From positions 1 to 64,000 of IMG/VR virus record IMGVR_UViG_3300042691_038490: a stretch of 64,000 bases of DNA. The stretch is one strand, 5' to 3'. The notes beneath the pieces were generated by a model. That model made no database searches. It was not told where the DNA came from and saw only the letters and a program-made list of their open reading frames with translations. Source of the DNA: a virus. A program made the position numbers and the translations under genes. This document shows positions 5,738 to 38,789 of the stretch, in pieces; position 1 is the first letter of the stretch; every line of letters begins with the position of its first letter.

Positions 5738-7432
5738 TTAAACATATGGAGCAAGATATCTTCCTGTCCAACTATAATTAGTTACACTTTGATTTAGAGC
5801 GACAAGACCTGCTGAGTCTATGCTTAATCTAGAGATATCCCAAACGTCTGCGCTCTCTGCTGAATTTTCTGGTGCAGTTCCACAATATGAAAAATCATAT
5901 GGATTACCAGTAACAAAATCATGGCGTTTTTCTAAAACTCCACCGCCGCCAGCAGCTTCGCCGCTAAGAAGAACGCCAGTACCATTTACTGTTGGTCTGC
6001 TATAGAAATTTTTGATTCCAGATATATTTTGATCGCCAGTAATTTGAACTGTTGAACTTAAATCAACATTTGCCGCTTCCCCAATTAATAAAACTCCTGT
6101 GCCATTTACAGTTGGTCGGTCATTGAATTGACCATTAGTTTTTGTTACATAATTAGATAAGTCTATGCCAGTTATAAAACCACTTGGATTATCTTTTGTA
6201 TAATAATTAGAAAGATCAACTCCTGTGATAAAGCCACTAGAATATAAGTTATTAATTTGAGTTTGTAGATTATTTCCTGTTGATATTAAATTAATAATTG
6301 TAGCATATTTATTATCAACAAAACCACTGTAAGTTTGTATTTCTTGTACAGATGCAATATCTGGTAATGTTGAAAGATCATCGCTTCTACGAGCAATTCC
6401 AAATTTAAATTTATCAGTATGATCAAACCCTATAATTGGACCATAATCATTAAAACCTGTTAGTCCTACTCCTGTAACAAAAAAGATTCCACCATCAAAA
6501 GCTCCTCCTGTAATATTAAGAAGAAGATAAGGACTTTCAATAAAATTATTTGTAACATTTGCAATAAATTCATTGCCAGTTACATAAAGATCATGAATAT
6601 AAACGCTATTTCTAAAAGTTTTTGTGCCATCTATGGTCTGATCTCCATATAAAAGAACAGAACTACCACTCAATGAATCTATCTTTGTATTTAACGTTTG
6701 ATCTGTTAAAATTAAATTATTTATATTTGAAATTAATATAGCCCCTGTGGATATTAAATTATTAGATATTAATACATCTTGGTTATCTACATATCCGCTC
6801 AAAGAGTTTATCTTGCTGTCTAATAAAGATCCTGTATTTTGTAAATTTACTATTGTAGCATAAGCACTAAGATCAATACCTGTAATAAAACCACTAGGAT
6901 TAGATTTTAAATAATAATTATTTGTTAAATCTCCACTTAAACTATTAATGCTTTGAGTTAGTGCATAACCTGTGTTTTCTAGATTAACTATTGTTGCATA
7001 TGTTAACGCAGCATTAGATGAAGTTAAATACTGACTAAGATCTAATCCTGTTATAAATCCACTTGGATTATTAATAGAATAATATCTTAAATCTAATTGA
7101 CCAGTATTTACGACTCCAGTTTCTCCTTGAGGACCTTGTGGGCCTGTTGGTCCAATTGGACCTGTAGCGCCGCTTGGTCCAATCGAACCTGATGGACCAA
7201 TTGCGCCACTAGGACCTGGAACACCACTTGGACCAATTGGGCCTTCTGGACCTGCTGGACCTTGAGGACCAACAAGATAAATATCGCTAGTTGGTTGAGA
7301 ACTCTCTATAGTTTGAATTGTTGCAACGTAATTTTCTGGAAGATTAACATTAGCATTAACTTCAGAATAGGGAGAATTAATATCTAAAGATTCTTGCCCT
7401 GGTAATTTTAAATCAATTTCTATCTCTGCCAT
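5738..7432 (-). CDS. Collagen-repeat tail fibre protein
   Basis: (G-P-X)n tract, NPSGFITG repeats, [11 protein letters not shown] and [11 protein letters not shown] fibre modules. Confidence 0.75.
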
Positions 7433-25127: not shown

Positions 25128-26972
25128 TTATTTTATCATTATTGGCGTAAATGTGTTAGATATCTCCTCTTTTGGTGCGTTTATTATATCATTATAGCAC
25201 TTCAAACCCCAATTTGCTAATAAAAGTGCAGAATAATTATCTTTTCTAGCTTTATTTGCGGATGAACTTCTTTTAAGATGTTGAGGTAAATCGAATGATT
25301 GAGTGCCTCTTGCTGTAGATGAATGTTCTATAAGAGTACATTGTTTTTTCGTTTGATAGATAAAATCATCTTGATTCTCTATGAAATCTAAAGTAGACCA
25401 ATCTTTCTTTTCCTCTGATTTCATAAGGTCTACAGGTATATTTTGATTAAATTGACCTTCGAAGAAACTATCATTTGCGCATGTTTTACTAGCAAACCAT
25501 ATTTTCTTATAATCAATAGACGCTTGTAGATGTTCATTAGATTTTCTTATAAAGCTGCTAGTGAATACTTGATTAAAAGCTATCTTTTTCGCTTCCAAGT
25601 TATAAGAGTTTCTAGCTCTTCTTATTTCTTGGTCATAATCTACTCCCTCTAAATCTGAATTAAATTCAAAAGAATTAATTTTAAAATTATTATTTTTAAA
25701 TAACTCTGATTCATTACAAGCAGAAAGAAATATGTCTGCGCCAGCATTATCAAGAATCATAAATACAATATTAAAATTAGTCATTATATAATATAAATAT
25801 TGTACGTGATTTTTTAGGTTTCCAAGTCCTGCGTATGTATGAACTAATGTGCCTGTTTTTGTTTCGTCATCAATTTCTATAACTGCCATAGCAAAATAAT
25901 CCGCATTAGGACTATCGCTCATGTTAGGATCAATTCCTAAAATATATTTTTTGTTAGCTAAACCTTTCATAAGAGTATGTGGAGCTTGGCCATTTGGTAT
26001 TGTACATTCTTCCATTTTTTTAGCACTAAAATAACTATCACTACCATCAATAAATCTAGCGCAATATTCTCTAAGGAAACTACTATGACTTGATCCACCT
26101 GCTTGAGCTTCTTCAATAATTGTTTTATCAATCATTTCTTCTGGAAGTGCTTCGTAGCTCATTTGAGAAACAAAATATGTTGCTTCATTCTCTTCTTTAG
26201 AATAAATTTTTTCTGTCCATTCGTTGTAAGTCTTGTAAAGGTTTTCAAAAGTATAGCTTGCAGATGAGAGAGCAATCATTTTACTATTATTTGGAAATAC
26301 CATCCTATCTTCATCTTTCATGACTCCTTCTTTAATAAGGTTATCCTCTATCTCCCTTATCTCCATTCGCTCTTTCATGTTTTGAGGAGCAACTAAGAAT
26401 GGCATAAGAACTGTTTTAACTATATCTTCTGATAATAGCAAGAACTCATCAAGTACAAGTACATTAGCTCGAAAACCTCGAATCTTTTCACCACTTAATG
26501 GAATTGCTACAATACTTCCTCCGTTTATTTGCCATTCATATTGATCGTTTCTTTTACTTTTTGCACCAAAAGCTTGTTTTAATAATTCTCCACCTTTGCT
26601 ATCTACAATCTTTTCTAAATTATTAAATATAAATCTAGCAGTTCTAAATGTAGGACCAGCAATCAGGATTTTAGTATTTGGTTCAAAAATACATTGTAAG
26701 AAACAAAAAACTGAAGCCATGAATGATTTACCACATCCACGACCAAAAACACACATATTAAAATTTCTATTAAGTAAACCTTTTAGATGTATTTCTTGAT
26801 AAGGAGCGAGTTTAATTCCACTAATTAATTCAGTAGTAAAACCTAAATTTGCCCTTAAAAACTTTGCTAATGTAATCTTAGCTTCTTTATCATTAAGTAT
26901 ACCTTTTAATTGAGAAAGCTCAAGATTAATATCTGGATAGTCTTTTTTATATTTATCTGGACAGTATATCAT
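25128..26972 (-). CDS. terL: Terminase large subunit
   Basis: Walker A GRGCGKS, Walker B VLVLDE, coupling motif LSSA, FLREYCARF, nuclease YILGIDP and RKDNYSA. Confidence 0.92.
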   Translation of the reverse strand: MIYCPDKYKKDYPDINLELSQLKGILNDKEAKITLAKFLRANLGFTTELISGIKLAPYQEIHLKGLLNRNFNMCVFGRGCGKSFMASVFCFLQCIFEPNTKILIAGPTFRTARFIFNNLEKIVDSKGGELLKQAFGAKSKRNDQYEWQINGGSIVAIPLSGEKIRGFRANVLVLDEFLLLSEDIVKTVLMPFLVAPQNMKERMEIREIEDNLIKEGVMKDEDRMVFPNNSKMIALSSASYTFENLYKTYNEWTEKIYSKEENEATYFVSQMSYEALPEEMIDKTIIEEAQAGGSSHSSFLREYCARFIDGSDSYFSAKKMEECTIPNGQAPHTLMKGLANKKYILGIDPNMSDSPNADYFAMAVIEIDDETKTGTLVHTYAGLGNLKNHVQYLYYIMTNFNIVFMILDNAGADIFLSACNESELFKNNNFKINSFEFNSDLEGVDYDQEIRRARNSYNLEAKKIAFNQVFTSSFIRKSNEHLQASIDYKKIWFASKTCANDSFFEGQFNQNIPVDLMKSEEKKDWSTLDFIENQDDFIYQTKKQCTLIEHSSTARGTQSFDLPQHLKRSSSANKARKDNYSALLLANWGLKCYNDIINAPKEEISNTFTPIMIK

Positions 26973-30588: not shown

Positions 30589-30703
30589 ATATAATATATA
30601 CACATAAAAGAATTTAAAATAGAACCTGTGTCATTTTGTCAATATACTAAATTTTATGTTATGTCATTTTGACTCTATATTGTTATTTTGTCTCTGTAGA
30701 AAC

Positions 30704-30720
30704 TTGGCATAGATCTTGCA
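30704..30720 (+). promoter_or_regulatory. Sigma54 (-24/-12) promoter of hsp20
   Basis: TTGGCATAGATCTTGCA matches YTGGCACGNNNNTTGCW with exact GG-N10-GC spacing. Confidence 0.75.
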
Positions 30721-30752
30721 TATAAATATAAACAAAGGAGGCATAGAAAAAT

Positions 30753-31108
30753 ATGCTATTGACACTAAGAAATGGAAGTAGACCATTAGATGTATTTGAA
30801 AATATATTTAATGATTCTATATTTAATTATGATAGGGATATTCTGACTTTATTTTAGAAAATGATCAGTATTCTCTTGAAATTCCTCTTGCAGGATTTAA
30901 GAAAGAGAATATTGATATTACTACAAATCAAGAATATCTAACTGTTAGGGCAACTAGAAAAGAAGGCAAAGTAAAATATGAAAAGTCTTTTTACTTGCCT
31001 AGAAAAGTAGATCTTACCGAAGTTAAAGCAAAGCATGAAGATGGTTTATTGACTATTACCTTTGGTAAAGAAAATAAAAAACTACAAAATAAAATCAAAA
31101 TAGACTAA
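30753..31108 (+). pseudogene. Hsp20 small heat-shock protein, split by a one-base frameshift
   Basis: AAGGAGG RBS and ATG 30753; this frame stops at TAG 30855-30857. The -1 frame from 30836 encodes YSLEIPLAGFKKENIDI...FYLPRKVD...AKHEDGLLTITF (alpha-crystallin domain) to TAA 31106-31108. Confidence 0.8.
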
Positions 31109-31115
31109 TAATAAT

Positions 31116-31146
31116 CTTAGCGTCAAGTTCAAACCTTGGCGCTAAG
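31116..31146 (+). terminator. Stem-loop after hsp20
   Basis: CTTAGCGTCAAG...CTTGGCGCTAAG inverted repeat. Confidence 0.55.
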
Positions 31147-31227
31147 TGTAATACTTTTATATGACACTAGCTTCTTGGTTAATTTGTGGTGCAGTTTTAG
31201 TTTATATACTTTATTTAAAAGAGAGAA

Positions 31228-31608
31228 TTAAATAGCAGATATAGTAACTGTGCCAGACCACCCGCTCGCCCCATTATAGTTACCTTCTGGTCGAATCGTG
31301 GAGAAGTCTGGCGGCCCAACTCCTGAAAATTTAGCAAAGTTCGAAGATCCTCCAGCGATTAAGCTAATCAACCAAGGGAATCCACTATAGTATAGTTTAT
31401 AAGTATCTGTCTCATCATAATAAACAGGTTGCCCACTATTGGTTAAACCACTGTCGTAAAATCTTAAATTATTTATATCTGGCGATAGTCCTACGCCAGT
31501 AGCTTTGTATAAATAAGTTCTTGCTTGTGAAACAATTGCTTTTTTAGGAATATATAAATTTATTCCTCTTGTAAATGAACCTAATTGTTTTGTCCCCTTA
31601 ACTCTCAT
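31228..31608 (-). CDS. Hypothetical virion-associated protein
   Basis: 126-aa ORF with GTGTAA motif upstream. Confidence 0.55.
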   Translation of the reverse strand: MRVKGTKQLGSFTRGINLYIPKKAIVSQARTYLYKATGVGLSPDINNLRFYDSGLTNSGQPVYYDETDTYKLYYSGFPWLISLIAGGSSNFAKFSGVGPPDFSTIRPEGNYNGASGWSGTVTISAI

Positions 31609-31625
31609 TATTCTTAAATTACACT

Positions 31626-31892
31626 TTATTTATCAAGGTAGTCTTCTATGTCTTTTATTAATTTTTTTCTTTTTCTACGCTCTAGAACTGTTACTAGTGT
31701 CGCTAAAGAGATCGGAAAAAAGAACCTAAGAAAAAATCCCATATGGTGCTCTTTAGTAAGAAGGTCAAAGTGATTAAGGTAAAGATCGCTGAGTCCGTAA
31801 ATTGTAAACAAAATAGCTGGAATAAAAACAATAAAAAAGAACTTCTCGTAATGTTCAAGATTATTCCACCAATTTATTATTTTAGTAAGCAT
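31626..31892 (-). CDS. Two-TM membrane protein
   Basis: Two hydrophobic helices and a basic tail; GTGTAA motif upstream. Confidence 0.6.
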   Translation of the reverse strand: MLTKIINWWNNLEHYEKFFFIVFIPAILFTIYGLSDLYLNHFDLLTKEHHMGFFLRFFFPISLATLVTVLERRKRKKLIKDIEDYLDK

Positions 31893-31910
31893 ATCATAAT
31901 TGCTTACACC

Positions 31911-32234
31911 TTAATATGGAGTAGCTTCTGGAGGGTTTGAATTTATATTACTAGAAACTGGAGGAATTTGAGTATCTATACTAGATTGCTCTGTTCCACT
32001 AGCTGTATCTAATTCTAGGCTTAAGGCTTCATCTAGATTTAATTCGCCATCACCAACGTTATATGTTGTAGATTTTCCATCCATCTCTATAACGATTGGA
32101 GTAGATTGACCATTGATACTTAAAATTATTTCACCCTTGTCGTTTCTTTTTATATTCATTTTAATTTGATTTTCTGTATAGACATAAGTTGTCATAAGAA
32201 TCGCGGCTAATATTAATAGTACTAATGTTTTCAT
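31911..32234 (-). CDS. Secreted/membrane-anchored protein
   Basis: N-terminal signal-like segment; coupled to the PEP-CTERM operon. Confidence 0.6.
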   Translation of the reverse strand: MKTLVLLILAAILMTTYVYTENQIKMNIKRNDKGEIILSINGQSTPIVIEMDGKSTTYNVGDGELNLDEALSLELDTASGTEQSSIDTQIPPVSSNINSNPPEATPY

Positions 32235-32494
32235 TTATTTATTTCTCCTGCTGATGTTTTAATATCTAAATTATTGTTAGTTTCTTTTAATACAATAGAT
32301 AATCCACAAACTGCTGCGAGAACTAGTAGTAAAATAGCTAAAAAATTAGTTTTTCTTTCTTGCTGTTTCTTTGTTCTATATTGATTAAAATTTTGTATGA
32401 AAACCTCTGTTTCTTTAGAGGATGGTTCATAGTAATTTTTTTTTAATATTGCTCTCAACTTATTATCCATTTCTAAACATTCTCCTATAACCAA
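32231..32494 (-). CDS. Single-pass membrane protein (anti-sigma-like architecture)
   Basis: Short cytoplasmic helix region followed by one TM; overlaps the PEP-CTERM gene stop. Confidence 0.5.
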   Translation of the reverse strand: MVIGECLEMDNKLRAILKKNYYEPSSKETEVFIQNFNQYRTKKQQERKTNFLAILLLVLAAVCGLSIVLKETNNNLDIKTSAGEINK

Positions 32495-33260
32495 TTACAG
32501 AAGATAATCCTATTAATGCTAAAGAAAAAGAAGATGGTTCTGGTATAACGCCTACATCAACAAGCGAGTCTGCGACGTATAATTCTTCTACATAAACTGT
32601 TGGAGCTGTGGTTGCTGAACCTTGTCTTAAATTAATTGCAGAAATATTTAATGCTGGTTCTGCGCCTGTTGTTGAATTCCAATTAGATTGAATTTCTGTG
32701 GCTAACGATAGCCTATCATTAACGTTAGGATTTACATACAAACTAAAAGTATCATTTGCTGCTCCAGCTACTATATCCCAAGCAATAACAATTGAATATA
32801 AAGTATTTAGATCAAGCACAGAGCTACCCCATACTGTAAGTGATCCCGTTCCAGATGTTGACATTAATCCTAAATTAAATCCAGAACCAGAAGCTCTTAC
32901 AAATAATCTTTGATAAAAATTAGAACTTGTTCCTGCTGGGTCTGATAAACTAAAAAAGTAATCACCATTCGCTTGAGCATTAACTACAGAAAGATCAATT
33001 CTTGTATATAAAGTAGAGACATTTGCTTTTACAGCTTGTGTTTGAAAAGATTTCCAGACATCTTGTCCAGTTGAGCCAACTACTATTTTACCATTAAAAT
33101 ATTGAACTGGATTATTACTCGCAGTAGAAGTTTGATTCCACCCGTTTTGTCCTACTAAATTTGCATCAATATAATTTGTATTTAAAGTATCAACAAGAAA
33201 TGTTGCTGCGTTTATATTAGAAGTTATTGCTATAATTAGTGTTGCTATTAGTTTTTTCAT
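32463..33260 (-). CDS. PEP-CTERM sorting-domain protein
   Basis: Signal peptide; C-terminal IPEPSS + TM + RR. Confidence 0.9.
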   Translation of the reverse strand: MKKLIATLIIAITSNINAATFLVDTLNTNYIDANLVGQNGWNQTSTASNNPVQYFNGKIVVGSTGQDVWKSFQTQAVKANVSTLYTRIDLSVVNAQANGDYFFSLSDPAGTSSNFYQRLFVRASGSGFNLGLMSTSGTGSLTVWGSSVLDLNTLYSIVIAWDIVAGAANDTFSLYVNPNVNDRLSLATEIQSNWNSTTGAEPALNISAINLRQGSATTAPTVYVEELYVADSLVDVGVIPEPSSFSLALIGLSSVIGYRRMFRNG

Positions 33261-34090
33261 AGATTTTTAATCTTTCTAATTAATATTAATGTTACCGCTC
33301 CTATCCCTAGCAGAGATGCAGCTGATGGCTCTGGAATACTAACAGCATCAAATGTTACAAGACTAAATGGAGCTATACTTTGAGTTCCATTTAATTGCCA
33401 TACTGAAACCGTAAATGTTTCATTTGCTAGCGCATCAATCTCAAATACCGCCATATCAGGATTGCCATCTCTAGTTAATAATGAAGAAAAAACTGTTCCT
33501 GTTGAAGCGCTAAAAATACCTACGTAGTCTGGTGCATAAGTTCCAGAAGCGGCAGTATCAACAACTATACCAAATCTAAAAGTTGTTGGCGTACTTATAG
33601 TAAAATTAAGCGCAATACCAAAATATCCATTATTTGATCCAGACGGAGTGTTGTAAGCGCCATTATTGACTGATACAGATAGTGCGCCTTGTCTATATAA
33701 AGATGAACCATCTGGTCCTCTAAAAATAGGATACCCACCATAATTTACAAATGTACCTGCTCCTCCAGTCAATGAACTAACGAAAGACGGAGTTGAACTT
33801 AAAGAAGGATAAGAGCTACTATTTGTACCTAATAAATTACCAGATCCAGCTGATTCGCCTATGTTTGCTGCTCCTGGATCCCAAGGCATAGGACGTATTT
33901 GAACATATCCAGAAGAACCATATATGTCGCTTCCTATATCATAAGTTTTAGAAACGCTAGCATTAGACCAATTTTGAACTGTATAACCATTACTTGCATT
34001 TCCTGTTTCAGTTCCTACAAAAGTAATTGCAGACTTGAGGCTACTTGTTAATACTAATGTAGCTATTGCTATTGTTATTAATTTTTTCAT
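33257..34090 (-). CDS. PEP-CTERM sorting-domain protein
   Basis: Signal peptide; C-terminal IPEPSAASLLGIG + TM + RKIK. Confidence 0.9.
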   Translation of the reverse strand: MKKLITIAIATLVLTSSLKSAITFVGTETGNASNGYTVQNWSNASVSKTYDIGSDIYGSSGYVQIRPMPWDPGAANIGESAGSGNLLGTNSSSYPSLSSTPSFVSSLTGGAGTFVNYGGYPIFRGPDGSSLYRQGALSVSVNNGAYNTPSGSNNGYFGIALNFTISTPTTFRFGIVVDTAASGTYAPDYVGIFSASTGTVFSSLLTRDGNPDMAVFEIDALANETFTVSVWQLNGTQSIAPFSLVTFDAVSIPEPSAASLLGIGAVTLILIRKIKNL

Positions 34091-34816
34091 TTATTTCCTT
34101 CTTAAGGCTCTAACTCCAATTAATAGTCCAAAACCTAATAACATTGATGACATTGTTGTTGGCTCTGGAACGATCTGAAGAGTCATATTATCTACATTAA
34201 TTGCACCAGAACTATAATTTTGCTGTTGCATTTCTAATCCAAATTGAGCAACTGAAACATCATTTGGCACAGTTACTGTGAATTCTCTATATGTCCAAGT
34301 ATCTAAAGGAGTATTCTTTAAAGATACTAAAACAGATGCCCAATCATAATAATATGAATAGTCTGAATTAAAAAACTTAGCATACATAAATGCATCTGTT
34401 GTTGTTTGTAATGGATCATAACTTGAGATGTATATATCCATAGAAAATTTAAGTTCTTTACCTTGAATATATGGAATCCAGCCATTTGTTGGATCATACC
34501 AATCATCGTATATATAACTATTAGATGTTGTTACGTTTCCTGGACCCCAATACAATGGCCACATTTTACCTAATTTAGAACCACCAGGAGCCACAATATA
34601 AGTTCCTGGCTCACCTGTAGCTGGCGCACCATATATTGTATCTCCAGAATTTAATACCGCTGTATTAGCAGATGGGTATCCACTAAATCCTGTCCATGAT
34701 CCATCTTCAAAATCTTCAACAAATAATATCTCTGATTTTAAAGAGGTTGCAGACATAAAAAAAGCCGCAGTTAAAATTGCGGCTGTGCTTCTTAGTATTT
34801 TTTTGTATATATTCAT
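34091..34816 (-). CDS. PEP-CTERM sorting-domain protein (carbohydrate-binding-like fold)
   Basis: Signal peptide; C-terminal VPEPTT + TM + RRK. Confidence 0.9.
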   Translation of the reverse strand: MNIYKKILRSTAAILTAAFFMSATSLKSEILFVEDFEDGSWTGFSGYPSANTAVLNSGDTIYGAPATGEPGTYIVAPGGSKLGKMWPLYWGPGNVTTSNSYIYDDWYDPTNGWIPYIQGKELKFSMDIYISSYDPLQTTTDAFMYAKFFNSDYSYYYDWASVLVSLKNTPLDTWTYREFTVTVPNDVSVAQFGLEMQQQNYSSGAINVDNMTLQIVPEPTTMSSMLLGFGLLIGVRALRRK

Positions 34817-34872
34817 AATCCTTGTTCCTTTTTGTTTGTAGACATCTTAAATTTTATTTTGTTCAAAGTTTT

Positions 34873-35403
34873 TTACTCCTTTATCCATGCTGTGGTTTTT
34901 TGATTATCATCATCAATAAGAATACTATTAAATACTATAGCTCTATATTTATCTTCTATCCAATTTGTTATTCTTAGATGATATTCATTTTTATTTCCAG
35001 CAGCACCAACTGGCATAGTTCCATAATTACTATCGTAAATCCACAACATTCCTTTATACTCAAAAACGCATACAGCATGACCATAGAATTTAGGTATGTT
35101 TACTGTATATTCAATTTTTGTTTTATCGAACTCTACATCTACTGTAAGATCAGCTTTATAATGATATTGAAAAGCATAAATTTGCGCCCATGTATTTTCA
35201 TTAGATAATATATAATTAGCATTAGAAGCAAAAGTAACAGAATCAACAAAACAAGAATTAGGCAGCTTAGATATGCTATGGTTTCTAGCTAAATTAAATC
35301 CTATTTTGAGTGCATAGTAAGCTATTATCCCATTTATTAAAAGTACTAGTGTTAGTTTACTTTTCCATCCAAACCAATTGAATAAATTTTTAAGCTTATT
35401 CAC
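34873..35403 (-). CDS. Membrane-anchored papain/transglutaminase-like protein
   Basis: N-terminal TM; NSC...GHAVCVF...WIYD Cys-His-Asp arrangement. Confidence 0.5.
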   Translation of the reverse strand: MNKLKNLFNWFGWKSKLTLVLLINGIIAYYALKIGFNLARNHSISKLPNSCFVDSVTFASNANYILSNENTWAQIYAFQYHYKADLTVDVEFDKTKIEYTVNIPKFYGHAVCVFEYKGMLWIYDSNYGTMPVGAAGNKNEYHLRITNWIEDKYRAIVFNSILIDDDNQKTTAWIKE

Positions 35404-35439
35404 TATCTCCTTGGATTACACGCAGGAGTTGTATTTAAT

Positions 35440-36756
35440 TTATTTTTTATTTTTATAATCTTGCAGACAAGATTTAAATTTAGATTTATCGTCGCCTTGT
35501 TTGGTAGGAATACATTCTTTTAAAAACTCGTTAAATTTTTGACCTTCAGTGACCATCATTCCTTTATACTCTTCATCATCTTCCATATCATATTTTTCTT
35601 CTTTTTCATTTTCTGAAGCTTTACTTTTGCAGTGTTGCTTTTGACTAAAACCTTTTGGATTATTACAGTCTATACTTCTTTTGTATTTCATGCTCCATTT
35701 AGCTTCTATTTTTTGTAATTGAATTTCTGTTTTACCAAGCATATCGCCTTTCTTCCAAGTAGCGCCATCATTGGTTGCTTCATAAATTACCGCATATCCC
35801 ATATCTTCTGGAAGTTCACGAATCTCTTTGACGATACCTTCGCTACCATAGTGCTTGCATTGAGCATTAACATTTTTTACTTTATCTCCAACTTTAAACA
35901 TTGTTGCGCCTTCCATCTCTTCCATTTCTTCAGGTTCTTCGTCTTCTTTATTAAACATTACATAGTTATGAATTGTAATCATATAGTCTTCTGCTAGGGC
36001 AGCCATAGATTGTAAAAATGGTTCAGTAAGATTTTCTTTTACCATTGGATCGTTAACTTTATCCATTACGTTCTTTGCGTGTTGATAGATAGAATTAATT
36101 GAACCAACGATCATGCCATAGAAATCTTCTTTATAATCTTCATATTCGTCTTCGATATCTTCCACTTCTTCAACTTGAGCAAGTGAAGGATCTAGTTTTA
36201 AAAGTTCTTCTTGATCAAATTCTGTTGTTCCGTCCCATTCATATTCTTCTGCTTGAGCTCTTTTGATCGCTTCTGGACTTGGACGATCTTTAGAACCTTC
36301 TGGTGCTGGGCGATAATTTTTACCCATTCTTTTTTTCTTTTGTTGTATATTGTACCAAAGCCCTTTGCTTTTTGCTTGAATATCTATCTCTAGTAAGGAT
36401 TCAGTTTCTTTTTCCTCAGAAGATGCGCATCCTGGTTTTCCACAAGATCCTTTTGTATATTGAGTAACAGATTTTCCAGCTTCCCACATTTTACAACTCC
36501 AGTATCTTGCTTTATACTTTGGACCTGGATTATCATCGCAAGAGTGACGGGAACGAAAAGCTTTACGACGAGCTGGATCATCACGACGAATCTCCATATT
36601 TGGATCACCAAATTTAACCATTACAATATTACCCTTATCGTTCTTTACATAAACACCAAATTTCTTTTTGCTTCCTTGTGGAAGGCGGAATGGTTTATTT
36701 AATGGAGCTTTGCCCTTTTTAGCTGCTTTTAATTGCTCTGTAAAGTCTATTTCCAT
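35440..36756 (-). CDS. Multi-module internal head protein
   Basis: String of small viral modules (VKFGDPNM...RHSC...YWSCKMW; GLWYNIQ; KVGDKV...CKHYGSEG; KYKRSIDCNNPKGFSQKQHC) joined by acidic linkers. Confidence 0.6.
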   Translation of the reverse strand: MEIDFTEQLKAAKKGKAPLNKPFRLPQGSKKKFGVYVKNDKGNIVMVKFGDPNMEIRRDDPARRKAFRSRHSCDDNPGPKYKARYWSCKMWEAGKSVTQYTKGSCGKPGCASSEEKETESLLEIDIQAKSKGLWYNIQQKKKRMGKNYRPAPEGSKDRPSPEAIKRAQAEEYEWDGTTEFDQEELLKLDPSLAQVEEVEDIEDEYEDYKEDFYGMIVGSINSIYQHAKNVMDKVNDPMVKENLTEPFLQSMAALAEDYMITIHNYVMFNKEDEEPEEMEEMEGATMFKVGDKVKNVNAQCKHYGSEGIVKEIRELPEDMGYAVIYEATNDGATWKKGDMLGKTEIQLQKIEAKWSMKYKRSIDCNNPKGFSQKQHCKSKASENEKEEKYDMEDDEEYKGMMVTEGQKFNEFLKECIPTKQGDDKSKFKSCLQDYKNKK

Positions 36757-36757
36757 A

Positions 36758-37369
36758 TTATATTAATGGTTCTTTAGCTAAGTTGGTTCTTTCCCAAGCT
36801 ATATATCTTGGTGTTTCAGCACTATAAACATTAACATCACCAACGTAAGCTTGATCACTTAAGCTTCCACCATCTCCTGCATCTTCATAAGAGCAGCCAG
36901 CTAGAACAAAGTTAAAACTTGAATTACTTGCAGCACTACTTCCATACTTTACATAAAGTTTTCCAGTTGCTAAATTTTGTAAAAATAATTCTCTACGATA
37001 TATATTATAATTTAATACTTTTGTGTTTGATGTTCCTACTGAATAGTTATTTATTCCTGTGCTTTGTTCTGGGAAATTTGTTACTGCATCAAATTGTTGA
37101 GTAAGATCTGCTTGGAAAACAATTGTACCTTGAACTCCCGCTGGATATGGATCGCCAGTGATAAATAGTTTATTGTCAATGCTTGTTGTTTCAGCTAATA
37201 TTCCACTTAAATAAGAATTTGGGCCAAATGTTCCAGCTGCTCCAGTTAGTATATCCTCTATGCTATCAAGTTTTCTCCAATCAAGACCTTTAAATCCTGT
37301 AAATCCAGGTTCTTCTGTGTAAACTTCTACTACATTTTTATTAAAATTTGGATCGTATACATTACCCAT
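36758..37369 (-). CDS. Virion structural protein
   Basis: Shares N-terminal YDPNFNKNVVEVYTEEPGFTGFKGL.W.KLD with 37413..38789. Confidence 0.6.
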   Translation of the reverse strand: MGNVYDPNFNKNVVEVYTEEPGFTGFKGLDWRKLDSIEDILTGAAGTFGPNSYLSGILAETTSIDNKLFITGDPYPAGVQGTIVFQADLTQQFDAVTNFPEQSTGINNYSVGTSNTKVLNYNIYRRELFLQNLATGKLYVKYGSSAASNSSFNFVLAGCSYEDAGDGGSLSDQAYVGDVNVYSAETPRYIAWERTNLAKEPLI

Positions 37370-37412: not shown

Positions 37413-38789
37413 TTATCTAGTTTCTCGCCATTGTAAGCTTGCTAAGGTATTTGTTGAAGTATTGTTAGATGTAGACATATTCTTAAGTAAAATAGCAAAA
37501 ATATTACTATCTGTACTATCTATATTTTGACTAATATAACCTCTCTTGGCAGATGTTATACTTCCTAGGTTTGTGGATGCTGATATTGTATTTCCTTGAC
37601 CACCAGGAGCAACTGTAGTAAATCCAGCAGAAAACATATTAGCTCCAGCAAGATTATATCCTGTTGCATTTATATTATATTCAACTACGCTAGTATCATC
37701 TGCGCTAACCCATGATCCACCAATTAATGATGCTCCACTTGGAAGGCGCCAAAATTCATAAGAACAAGTTTGACTAACGCTATAAAGTTGTGATGTTCCT
37801 AATCTAACTACACTTCTATTTGGTTGACCAAAATATCCGGTTTTTAATCTAATTGCTATAACTGGGATTGTAGTATTTTCGACAATATTTCTATAGCCAG
37901 TAGTTCTTGCAGCAAAATCTACTCCTGCTTCAGTATATCCACCTTCACTAAAAACTGTAGCGCAAATTTGATCCATCGAATCTGTACCCATTGAAGATGA
38001 TCCAGAATAATTTCTAATTTCACAACGAACCGGAAGATTTGGATTGCTAATGTATACTGAATCTTTTAAATTACTATTATAAAATTCATGAGCTGTTACA
38101 AATTTTCCTTCATGAACAAATCCAACTCTTACTCTACCAACTCCAAGCCATTCATAGTCTGTCCAAAATAGTTGTGTTTTAGTTGGATTTAAATTAAATT
38201 GTGAAAATCCGTTTCCATTGCATGTATCAGTATTCCAATTGATTTGTGGAATTAGTTCATTATATACATATCCAGAAACATTACTTCTTAATCCAAAATA
38301 TAAACCTCCATCTCCACTTTGCATGAGGTATATGCCATTTTTATCATCGAATAGTCCAATTCTTTTATTTGTTCCAGCTCTATATCCTGTAAAATTAAAA
38401 CTTTGTAAACTTACTTGACTTTTTCCTGGCATATAGTGATGATACATTCTGCTTTGATGAATTGTAAAATCATTAGTTCCAGTTCCAACTTGTAATACTG
38501 CTTTTGCTTTTAAGATATCAAATGAGATAGAAGAATTATTTCCACTTGTTTTTGTTAAGAGTTCTGTTTCTTCACCATAAACGTGAGAATAGTCTGCTAG
38601 AGTAAATGGTTCTGAAACTCTCATTCTTCCAAATGCATCAATATTTGTTGCGCTAGAAGAATTTCTTAAAAGAGATTCAATATCATCCAATTTATTCCAT
38701 TCTAAACCTTTAAATCCAGTGAATCCTGGTTCTTCTGTATAAACCTCAACAACATTTTTATTAAAATTTGGATCGTATATGTTAGACAT
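37413..38789 (-). CDS. Virion structural protein
   Basis: DAFGRMRVSEPFTL, YMPGKSQ and EWLGVGRVRVGF motifs of a widespread phage structural family. Confidence 0.65.
   Translation of the reverse strand: MSNIYDPNFNKNVVEVYTEEPGFTGFKGLEWNKLDDIESLLRNSSSATNIDAFGRMRVSEPFTLADYSHVYGEETELLTKTSGNNSSISFDILKAKAVLQVGTGTNDFTIHQSRMYHHYMPGKSQVSLQSFNFTGYRAGTNKRIGLFDDKNGIYLMQSGDGGLYFGLRSNVSGYVYNELIPQINWNTDTCNGNGFSQFNLNPTKTQLFWTDYEWLGVGRVRVGFVHEGKFVTAHEFYNSNLKDSVYISNPNLPVRCEIRNYSGSSSMGTDSMDQICATVFSEGGYTEAGVDFAARTTGYRNIVENTTIPVIAIRLKTGYFGQPNRSVVRLGTSQLYSVSQTCSYEFWRLPSGASLIGGSWVSADDTSVVEYNINATGYNLAGANMFSAGFTTVAPGGQGNTISASTNLGSITSAKRGYISQNIDSTDSNIFAILLKNMSTSNNTSTNTLASLQWRETR

Follow-up and report, generated by a model that had tools for sequence, protein, structure and literature searches.

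Gene content of the island

The window analysed here is the first 64,000 nucleotides of the IMG/VR virus record IMGVR_UViG_3300042691_038490, which totals 94,859 bp (CheckV completeness 58%). Its minus strand carries a run of three genes, PEP1, PEP2 and PEP3, each predicted to encode an exported protein that ends in a PEP-CTERM tail, the sorting signal of bacterial exosortase systems. Genes for two small membrane proteins (sm87 and sm107) follow. The five genes form an island between two genes of the phage backbone, one for a 176-aa protein and one designated sm88 (Table 1). The junctions within the island are tight. The stop codon of PEP1 abuts the start of PEP2 (TAAATG), PEP2 and PEP3 overlap by 4 nt (ATGA), the first 8 nt of sm87 (ATG at 32470) fall within the end of PEP3, and sm87 and sm107 overlap by 4 nt. 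These arrangements indicate translational coupling, which by itself suggests transcription as a single operon. An initial annotation of the same DNA, made by a model from the letters only, had described three tandem, tightly coupled genes followed by two small membrane proteins, and both parts of that description hold. We did not identify a sigma-54-like box in the spacer upstream of PEP1. A scan for sigma-70 promoters and for terminators found fewer promoter-like sites than in shuffled sequences, and the terminator-like matches fall inside genes.

Table 1. Features of the PEP-CTERM island and of its boundaries, with positions in the 64,000-nt window. TM, transmembrane; CBM, carbohydrate-binding module.
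Feature	Coordinates	Strand	Description
176-aa gene, upstream boundary	34873-35403	-	N-terminal TM helix; phage backbone, outside island
Spacer before PEP1	34817-34872	-	56 nt, GGA-rich ribosome-binding site; upstream island edge
PEP1	34091-34816	-	241 aa; signal peptide, CBM4_9/DUF642-like beta-sandwich (lead only), tail VPEP...RALRRK
PEP2	33257-34090	-	277 aa; signal peptide, CBM-like beta-jelly-roll, tail IPEP...IRKIKNL
PEP3	32463-33260	-	265 aa; signal peptide, concanavalin-A-like lectin/glucanase beta-sandwich, tail IPEP...YRRMFRNG
sm87	32231-32470	-	Small membrane protein, one TM helix
sm107	31911-32234	-	Small protein, N-terminal TM helix or signal peptide
sm88, downstream boundary	31626-31892	-	Two TM helices, highly charged C-terminus; phage backbone

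The PEP-CTERM sorting signal

When read directly, the C-termini of PEP1, PEP2 and PEP3 consist of (V/I)PEP, about 18 hydrophobic residues and a cluster of R/K. Each N-terminus is K-rich at its start and continues through a hydrophobic core to a small-residue site (...SLKS/EI, ...SLKS/AI and ...NINA/AT in PEP1, PEP2 and PEP3, respectively). The signal peptide and the (V/I)PEP, TM helix and basic tail initially attributed to each protein are thus confirmed. A hydropathy rule with a 19-residue window flags the N-terminus of PEP2 and PEP3 and leaves that of PEP1 unflagged; the predicted models of PEP2 and PEP3 show an N-terminal helix. The features of the three proteins match the definition of PEP-CTERM proteins given by Haft et al. 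(2006; PMC1569441).

The tails were scored with the hidden Markov models (HMMs) PF07589 and TIGR02595, for which the curated cut-offs are 20.7 and 16 bits. PEP1 exceeds both (22.3 and 17.0 bits), PEP3 lies at the PF07589 cut-off (20.6 bits on the protein, 24.0 bits in a six-frame search) and PEP2 is slightly under both (14.0 and 15.5 bits). At the level of the HMMs, the PEP-CTERM assignment of the initial annotation therefore stands for PEP1, is borderline for PEP3 and falls short for PEP2. A simple tail rule matches three of the 93 six-frame open reading frames (ORFs) of at least 80 aa in the window, and these are PEP1, PEP2 and PEP3. The residues P-E-P are invariant across alignments A1, A2 and A4 (26, 21 and 11 homologues), and the tripeptide persists unchanged even in phage-type homologues at 40-65% identity, which argues that something still reads the motif. 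This invariance, together with the matching tails found on different passengers (below), argues that the reader is a specific host enzyme.

Unusual tails were observed in cassettes of other phages. In L019 (1722-2528, plus strand), a 268-aa ORF keeps IPEP followed by a non-hydrophobic, degenerate tail, and is apparently a decayed PEP-CTERM gene. In L004 (9983-11551, plus strand; also L003, 8324-9892), a 522-aa ORF contains two complete PEP-CTERM modules in one frame, uninterrupted by a stop codon. The first tail ends in a basic cluster (...FMRTKNKTK) that is followed immediately by a stretch resembling a signal peptide (VSLLAALLAIFSLNTTHA). The second protein could therefore be initiated at an internal Met within the first tail, and the ORF may be a fusion or an in-frame overlap.

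Residence in a phage genome

Phage markers in the record include the large terminase TerL (25128-26972), a collagen-like tail fibre (5738-7432), a phrog_1645 virion protein (37413-38789), PhoH and seven tRNA genes; the size of the whole genome is estimated at about 165 kb. From about 23 kb to 42 kb, the minus strand carries nearly all genes of at least 120 aa, and the PEP island is inside this block. The PEP genes sit among the late genes of a large uncultured freshwater phage, and neither an integrase nor a lysogeny module was seen in the vicinity of the island. TerL is at most 28% identical to those of GenBank phages, and the best GenBank phage match of the virion protein (42%) is to a cyanophage, values that place the phage in an uncultured lineage. 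Sequencing runs that contain the stretch come from 11 studies (freshwater, aquaculture, aquatic and 'fungus' metagenomes). A tblastn search with PEP1, PEP2 and PEP3 against 50,697 GenBank phage records gave zero matches. The adjacent late genes at 36758-37369 and 37413-38789 seem to share a similar N-terminus of about 41 residues, and in relatives both queries match the same two places (L025, 58-180 and 1727-1849).

We found no evidence for an artefact (a bacterial fragment mis-assembled onto a phage contig, or the host flank of a prophage), although the nearest named homologues of the PEP proteins are bacterial. Phage genes on the same strand occur on both sides of the island. The GC content at third codon positions (GC3) of PEP1-3 is 0.13-0.18, which matches that of neighbouring phage genes (0.09-0.29, most 0.13-0.22) and is far from that of the bacterial homologues (0.33-0.92; 0.49-0.92 for those from Verrucomicrobiota and Planctomycetota). 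The phage-like AT-richness noted initially is thereby borne out, and the codon composition fits long residence in phages. In a comparison of Logan contigs of four runs from four studies with positions 30600-36400, one 7,363-nt contig from run X2 spans 31460-35411 unbroken at 97.5% identity, a stretch that takes in sm88, the whole island and the 176-aa gene. PEP-CTERM genes occupy the same place in relatives that share the backbone (TerL 77%; neighbour at 35440-36756, 68-80%), and the same arrangement recurs in many independent viral contigs. The contig from another study crosses both junctions, and the chimeric host insert that the initial annotation had named as the finding that would undo its claim of phage-borne genes is excluded by this contig, by GC3 and by the presence of PEP-CTERM ORFs in 26 of 46 bounded viral loci (below). 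We regard the chance of an artefact as vanishingly small.

Passenger domains

The PEP3 model (pLDDT 87.7) is a concanavalin-A-like two-sheet beta-sandwich. Its structural matches (VIA) reach Z 12-15 over 172-202 aligned residues (root-mean-square deviation, rmsd, 3.0-4.7), with a Foldseek probability of 1.00, and include the lectin domains of calreticulin and calnexin, sialidase lectin modules, GH16, PL20 and phage receptor-binding domains. PEP2 (pLDDT 90.3) is modelled as a jelly roll. Its best structural matches are CBMs at Z 8.0-9.6 (top match 8x8h, Z 9.6, 135 residues, rmsd 3.2; six chains at Z of at least 8), to be read against the Z of 7-8 that the tool returns for models without a match, and Foldseek found weak CBM35/51/4/6 matches. 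PEP1 scores 15.9 bits against CBM_4_9 (PF02018), under the cut-off of 25.9. Its neighbours in the language-model Atlas are Verrucomicrobiota PEP-CTERM clusters with CBM_4_9 or DUF642 in 17-54% of members, and a CBM_4_9/DUF642-like beta-sandwich is suggested as a lead only. No Pfam model of a catalytic domain was recognised in the three island proteins, and no CBM model reached its cut-off.

The passengers look like carbohydrate-binding modules with lectin- or CBM-type folds. In predicted fold they resemble known CBM and concanavalin-A-like domains (CBM4/9, CBM22/35, legume lectins, calreticulin), at a sequence identity of about 4-16% in structural alignments. CBM domains also occur in phage baseplate and receptor-binding proteins, for example CBM2 in the Dit protein of phage J-1. 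No second copy of any passenger domain, for example in a tail fibre, was found within the 95-kb record; the idea that the passengers mimic the phage's own receptor-binding domain thus lacks sequence support within that record.

We detected no mutual relationship among the passengers of PEP1, PEP2 and PEP3. Sequence comparison matches their tails only, and the three are not detectable as paralogues. Homologues of PEP1 at 65-95% identity are of the phage type, and those at 42-46% include a protein from a Verrucomicrobia metagenome-assembled genome (MAG). PEP2 has more than 400 homologues, and its domain also occurs as the N-terminal head of longer proteins of up to 2,537 aa. Some PEP2-family proteins (rows P0248, P0250, P0256, P0264, P0266 and P0267 of alignment A3) have neither a signal peptide nor a PEP-CTERM tail. 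They end directly after a conserved ...TFD, and their N-termini resemble those of phage structural proteins. Given these tailless rows, the PEP2-type domain may also serve inside virions.

An optional island of variable content

The family of the 176-aa protein was found in 71 IMG/VR viral loci, which were fetched, and the 46 that are bounded by the 176-aa and sm88 genes were compared. One to three PEP-CTERM ORFs occur in 26 of the 46; sm87 accompanies them in 24 of these 26 loci and sm107 in 13. In 15 loci, with a 176-aa protein 72-80% identical to that of the window, just 158-164 nt separate the boundary genes, and the PEP genes and sm107 are absent. The site is not empty in these relatives, and sm87 is not specific to the island, because the 158-164-nt stretch encodes a 61-aa protein that is colinear with the first 55 residues of sm87 and lacks its periplasmic tail. 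The PEP-CTERM genes are therefore gained or lost together with the periplasmic extension of sm87 and, about half of the time, with sm107. The island is thus an optional, recombination-prone element of about 3 kb at a fixed site.

Its content varies among relatives. The window has PEP1, PEP2 and PEP3, L022 has PEP1 and a 256-aa PEP-CTERM protein, and L018 and L021 have PEP1 and a PATR-repeat PEP-CTERM protein of 571 or 811 aa. PEP2 occurs alone in L026 and with a 542-aa PEP-CTERM protein in L025. Near-identical tails were found on unrelated passengers: IPEPSSWSLILIGCGSLIALRRLKRNG on P0029 (PEP3 family), IPEPSSWSLILIGCGSLIALRRLKGNG on L026 (PEP2 family) and, as a close variant, IPEPSSWSLIIISCGSLIALRRLKRNG on P0011 (PEP1 family). 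The tail common to P0029 and the PEP2-family protein of L026, IPEPSSWSLILIGCGSLIALRRLK(R/G)NG, is 27 residues long. Tail sharing was judged from individual tail comparisons, as clustering of passengers is distorted by multi-domain ORFs. The pattern of tails indicates that recombination has swapped passenger domains before a conserved tail.

Cassettes in other phage lineages

Cassettes of PEP-CTERM genes are also present in phages with other backbones. G002 is a 229,717-bp phage genome (CheckV 100% complete) with a PEP3 homologue at 60% identity and five PEP-CTERM matches. Its TerL is 27% identical to that of the window phage over part of the protein, and no shared major virion protein was detectable. 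The G002 cassette consists of four PEP-CTERM modules, a prepilin-like protein, a 1,052-aa GH13-family protein, an sm87-like gene, an sm107 gene and a homologue of the 176-aa protein. This GH13 protein, of the alpha-amylase family and located in the L004 cassette, is without a PEP-CTERM tail. In L019/L020, PEP1 homologues occur together with a GH16 that bears a PEP-CTERM tail (the GH16 is in L019), and sister cassettes also carry PATR-repeat PEP-CTERM proteins. The cargo theme of the sister cassettes is surface and glycan proteins. A single-protein search of viral contigs with PEP3 found nothing; the matches came from alignment-based searches.

Small membrane proteins and boundary genes

From the ATG used by its relatives, sm87 encodes 79 aa, comprising about 38 cytoplasmic residues, one TM helix and a predicted periplasmic tail (...LDIKTSAGEINK). 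The sm107 protein has a predicted exported domain of about 85 aa that ends in ...ATPY, and its homologues end in ATP(Y/F) or the close variants TTPF/Y, STPY and ATPI. In the unrelated phages L003/L004 and L019/L020, too, the cassette has an sm107 homologue (35-36% identity) next to it. A short motif is common to the two small proteins, LDI(K/Q)T(S/A)AGE in sm87 and (L/V)DT(A/S)SG(T/V)E in sm107 (regions 32231-32300 and 31911-32000), and is conserved across homologues of both; the form shared by sm107 and the periplasmic tail of sm87 can be summarised as D-x-x-T-A-(A/S)-G. The predicted topology of sm88 is holin-like.

In the 176-aa protein, Cys51, His109 and Asp124 are invariant (alignment A5). 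No match was found in Pfam, NCBIfam, PHROGs or PDB sequences, and profile searches of Pfam and PDB were empty. Assignment as a transglutaminase-like or papain-like cysteine peptidase found no support, as hhalign against 10 Transglut_core (PF01841) sequences gave a probability of 0.06%. Atlas neighbours are viral clusters, one Verrucomicrobiota cluster at 0.87 and a weak DUF553 lead at 0.79, and the protein was not found in five Verrucomicrobiota genomes. Two sequence types of the 176-aa protein occur among L027-L097. The type nearest the window copy (72-83% identity) is nearly always without PEP-CTERM genes, and the type at 36-41% identity is nearly always directly before a large (550-900 aa) PEP-CTERM gene. 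The window and L027 are exceptions that combine the first type with an island.

The neighbourhood resembles a lysis cassette in topology only: one of its proteins is TM-anchored with invariant Cys/His/Asp, a small one has a single TM helix, and another has two TM helices and a charged tail. Family searches assigned none of these neighbours. Alternatively, the 176-aa protein, sm87 and sm107 might form an envelope module that processes, hijacks or redirects the exosortase pathway for the phage PEP-CTERM proteins. Such a module could comprise a phage-supplied peptidase or transpeptidase, or adaptors for these proteins. The idea fits because sm107 and the periplasmic tail of sm87, with their shared motif, appear only with PEP-CTERM genes, because the 176-aa, sm87-like and sm107 families adjoin PEP-CTERM cassettes in otherwise unrelated phage backbones, and because the two 176-aa sequence types track the presence of the island. 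We nevertheless consider it quite improbable.

Exosortase, cellular relatives and host

The initial annotation saw no exosortase in the window. We likewise did not identify one (PF09721) in the whole record, at its completeness of 58%, nor in the complete genome of G002. Thus, the enzyme must come from the host, and dependence on a host exosortase is well supported. PEP3 homologues (28-54% identity) are present on 13 bacterial genome contigs, five from Verrucomicrobiota (with 'Akkermansia sp.' or Akkermansiaceae MAG labels), six from Planctomycetota, one from Ignavibacteria and one from an unclassified uncultured bacterium. Exosortases were identified in four of the five Verrucomicrobiota genomes that hold PEP3 homologues, and the best named homologue of PEP1 is from a Verrucomicrobia MAG. 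The link to Verrucomicrobia made initially is therefore upheld, with the nearest cellular homologues in both Verrucomicrobiota and Planctomycetota.

The closest chromosomal homologue of PEP3 (L005, a Verrucomicrobiota MAG) has housekeeping genes as neighbours (pnp, rpsO and a queA-like gene). In a quick maximum-likelihood tree of PEP3, in which the phage or bacterial origin of unlabelled rows was judged by amino-acid composition alone, all sequences of the AT-rich type form one 26-row clade (SH-aLRT 96) that includes the window gene and the copy from the jumbo phage G002. Sister to it is a 23-row clade containing L005. This topology fits one capture from a Verrucomicrobiota-like source and subsequent phage-to-phage exchange. 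The L005 homologue (335-1168) has a GC content of 0.49 in a contig of 0.58, and the GC content of several further bacterial copies is likewise below that of their contigs, which could reflect phage-to-bacterium transfer or merely amino-acid composition.

The host is probably a member of the Verrucomicrobiota and, less probably, of the Planctomycetota. A ferredoxin-dependent bilin reductase gene (PF05996, 54.3 bits against a cut-off of 31) was identified in the 230-kb phage (L004, 8087-8764, minus strand), about 0.6 kb upstream of its PEP-CTERM cassette. Genes for bilin reductases are known mainly from cyanophages and marine phages, and this gene therefore bears on the host question.

Proposed function and alternatives

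We infer a route that runs from export through exosortase cleavage and glycan binding to a benefit for the phage. A Sec-type signal peptide would carry each PEP protein across the inner membrane, in which the PEP-CTERM tail would retain it. The host exosortase would then cut at the PEP motif and hand the protein to the cell surface or exopolysaccharide layer, where the displayed passengers would act as glycan binders and coat the glycan surface of the infected cell. The most probable purpose would be to mask or tie up surface glycans, such that further phage adsorption is blocked and progeny are not lost on infected cells and debris. With moderate confidence, we favour this explanation, in which host-sorted, phage-encoded lectin-like proteins decorate the infected cell. 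The passengers are CBM-type beta-sandwiches without a recognisable catalytic domain, which suggests that the phage decorates the glycan surface with lectin-like proteins of its own. The island is hypervariable and dispensable, which favours a role in surface conflict (receptor masking, exclusion) over a metabolic role. The initial annotation had suggested superinfection exclusion, aggregation or grazing avoidance as possible gains, or saturation of the sorting system.

Several points weigh against this explanation. The tail of PEP2 scores under both HMM cut-offs, and we know of no demonstration of exosortase cleavage of any phage PEP-CTERM protein. Carbohydrate binding by the passengers is deduced from fold alone, and PEP3 could be catalytic, given that some enzymes (GH16, PL7/20/36) have the concanavalin-A-like fold as well. 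Genes for superinfection exclusion classically have another location and timing than a late or lysis-like neighbourhood such as this one, and none of the sequencing runs listed with this stretch is an RNA run. PEP3 was found in one of 401 sampled Verrucomicrobiota species (a genome already known) and the PEP1 profile in none of 301, and because the families are so rare in sampled genomes the host assignment is probable rather than established. A cyanobacterial host is possible: for one virion protein, the nearest relatives in culture are cyanophages, and exosortases also occur in cyanobacteria (PMC12188702).

The glycoside hydrolases of the sister cassettes keep alive a rival explanation, in which surface-anchored CBM or lectin proteins, with the GH16 and GH13 of those cassettes, would boost the capture and breakdown of external polysaccharide and feed the cell during a long infection, the host exosortase still doing the sorting. 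Verrucomicrobiota are polysaccharide degraders, and CBM- or lectin-type passengers, the PEP-CTERM-tailed GH16 of L019 and the GH13 of the L004 cassette all agree with such foraging. We consider it unlikely for the phage studied here, as Pfam recognises no catalytic domain in its island, and as auxiliary metabolic genes are usually conserved whereas this island is absent from 15 close relatives and varies in content among near ones.

Exosortases might also play no part, with the tails merely holding the domains in the periplasm, where they would join the 176-aa protein, sm87, sm107 and sm88 in a module for lysis or egress that might, for example, break down the envelope or release virions from slime. 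The island is indeed flanked by a TM-anchored protein with invariant Cys, His and Asp and by a protein with two TM helices and a charged tail. In unrelated backbones, PEP-CTERM genes have homologues of the 176-aa protein and of sm107 within a distance of about 9 kb (and, in L019/L020, an sm88 homologue), and sm107 and the periplasmic tail of sm87 are confined to loci with PEP genes. A plain anchor, however, would need no invariant Pro-Glu-Pro, the bacterial homologues of these proteins are ordinary PEP-CTERM proteins in exosortase-bearing genomes, no neighbour has an established lysis function and the 176-aa protein matches no family. We judge a lysis or egress role improbable. Three or more tandem substrates and the lack of a phage exosortase are all that speaks for decoys, massively expressed late, that would saturate or divert the host exosortase until host surface proteins or exopolysaccharide assembly fail. 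The tail by itself would suffice for this purpose, yet three distinct and conserved passengers are kept (pLDDT 88-90 for PEP2 and PEP3, with many invariant residues), and a decoy function appears very improbable.

Relationship to known systems and implications

Like bacterial substrates of the PEP-CTERM/exosortase system (EpsH, XrtA; PF07589, TIGR02595; PMC1569441), the PEP proteins combine an N-terminal signal peptide with passengers of diverse kinds and a tail in which a TM helix and a basic cluster come after Pro-Glu-Pro, and they occur in several copies per genome. One such bacterial substrate is PepA from the floc-formers Aquincola/Zoogloea (PMC9850573). The PEP1 and PEP3 homologues encoded by MAGs of Verrucomicrobiota and Planctomycetota are themselves annotated as PEP-CTERM proteins. 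Here, however, the substrates are virus-encoded, and the usual co-occurrence with an exosortase in the same genome is not seen. In bacteria, according to Haft et al. (2006; PMC1569441), each substrate gene is an operon of its own behind a long upstream region, whereas the phage genes form a tightly coupled tandem cassette with no sigma-54 box ahead, phage codon usage and phage-specific small membrane proteins alongside.

The closest functional analogy would be a prophage-carried sortase substrate such as SasX, an LPXTG surface protein of a phiSPbeta-like prophage (PMC7047976). In both cases, a phage carries a substrate of a host sorting enzyme without the enzyme; SasX alters the cell surface, as is proposed for the PEP proteins. 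The systems differ in that SasX depends on LPXTG and sortase in a Gram-positive envelope, and the proteins described here would depend on PEP-CTERM and exosortase. In addition, SasX is a lysogenic-conversion gene of a temperate phage, whereas the PEP genes are late genes of a large phage.

A pay-off like that of Llp of phage T5 is judged most likely for the island, by analogy. Llp is a superinfection-exclusion and receptor-masking lipoprotein in the host envelope that binds a protein receptor. The likeness is that of an exported phage protein in the host envelope, thought to prevent adsorption and loss of progeny on debris. The PEP proteins differ from Llp in being lectin-like, in their anchor and sorting route, and in occurring in variable sets.

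A literature search covering about 8.4 million papers and preprints found no description of phage-encoded PEP-CTERM cassettes, only passing mentions (10.64898/2026.09.15.751708; PMC11003980). The present analysis adds the anatomy of the hot spot, small membrane proteins that co-vary with the PEP genes, a cargo of the lectin type and relatives of the PVC type.

Many environmental Gram-negative bacteria use the PEP-CTERM/exosortase system, whose biochemistry is still poorly understood, as their main means of placing proteins in surface and slime layers. If the proposed function is correct, these cassettes, with their conserved tails and swappable domains, would be a compact natural toolkit for the study of exosortase recognition. 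They would also represent phage genes of a new class, which remodel the glycans on the surface of infected cells and so affect, in lakes, aggregation, attachment to particles and competition between phages. Finally, they would serve as a marker of host range for the large uncultured phages that infect Verrucomicrobiota and Planctomycetota, groups for which hardly any phage biology is available.

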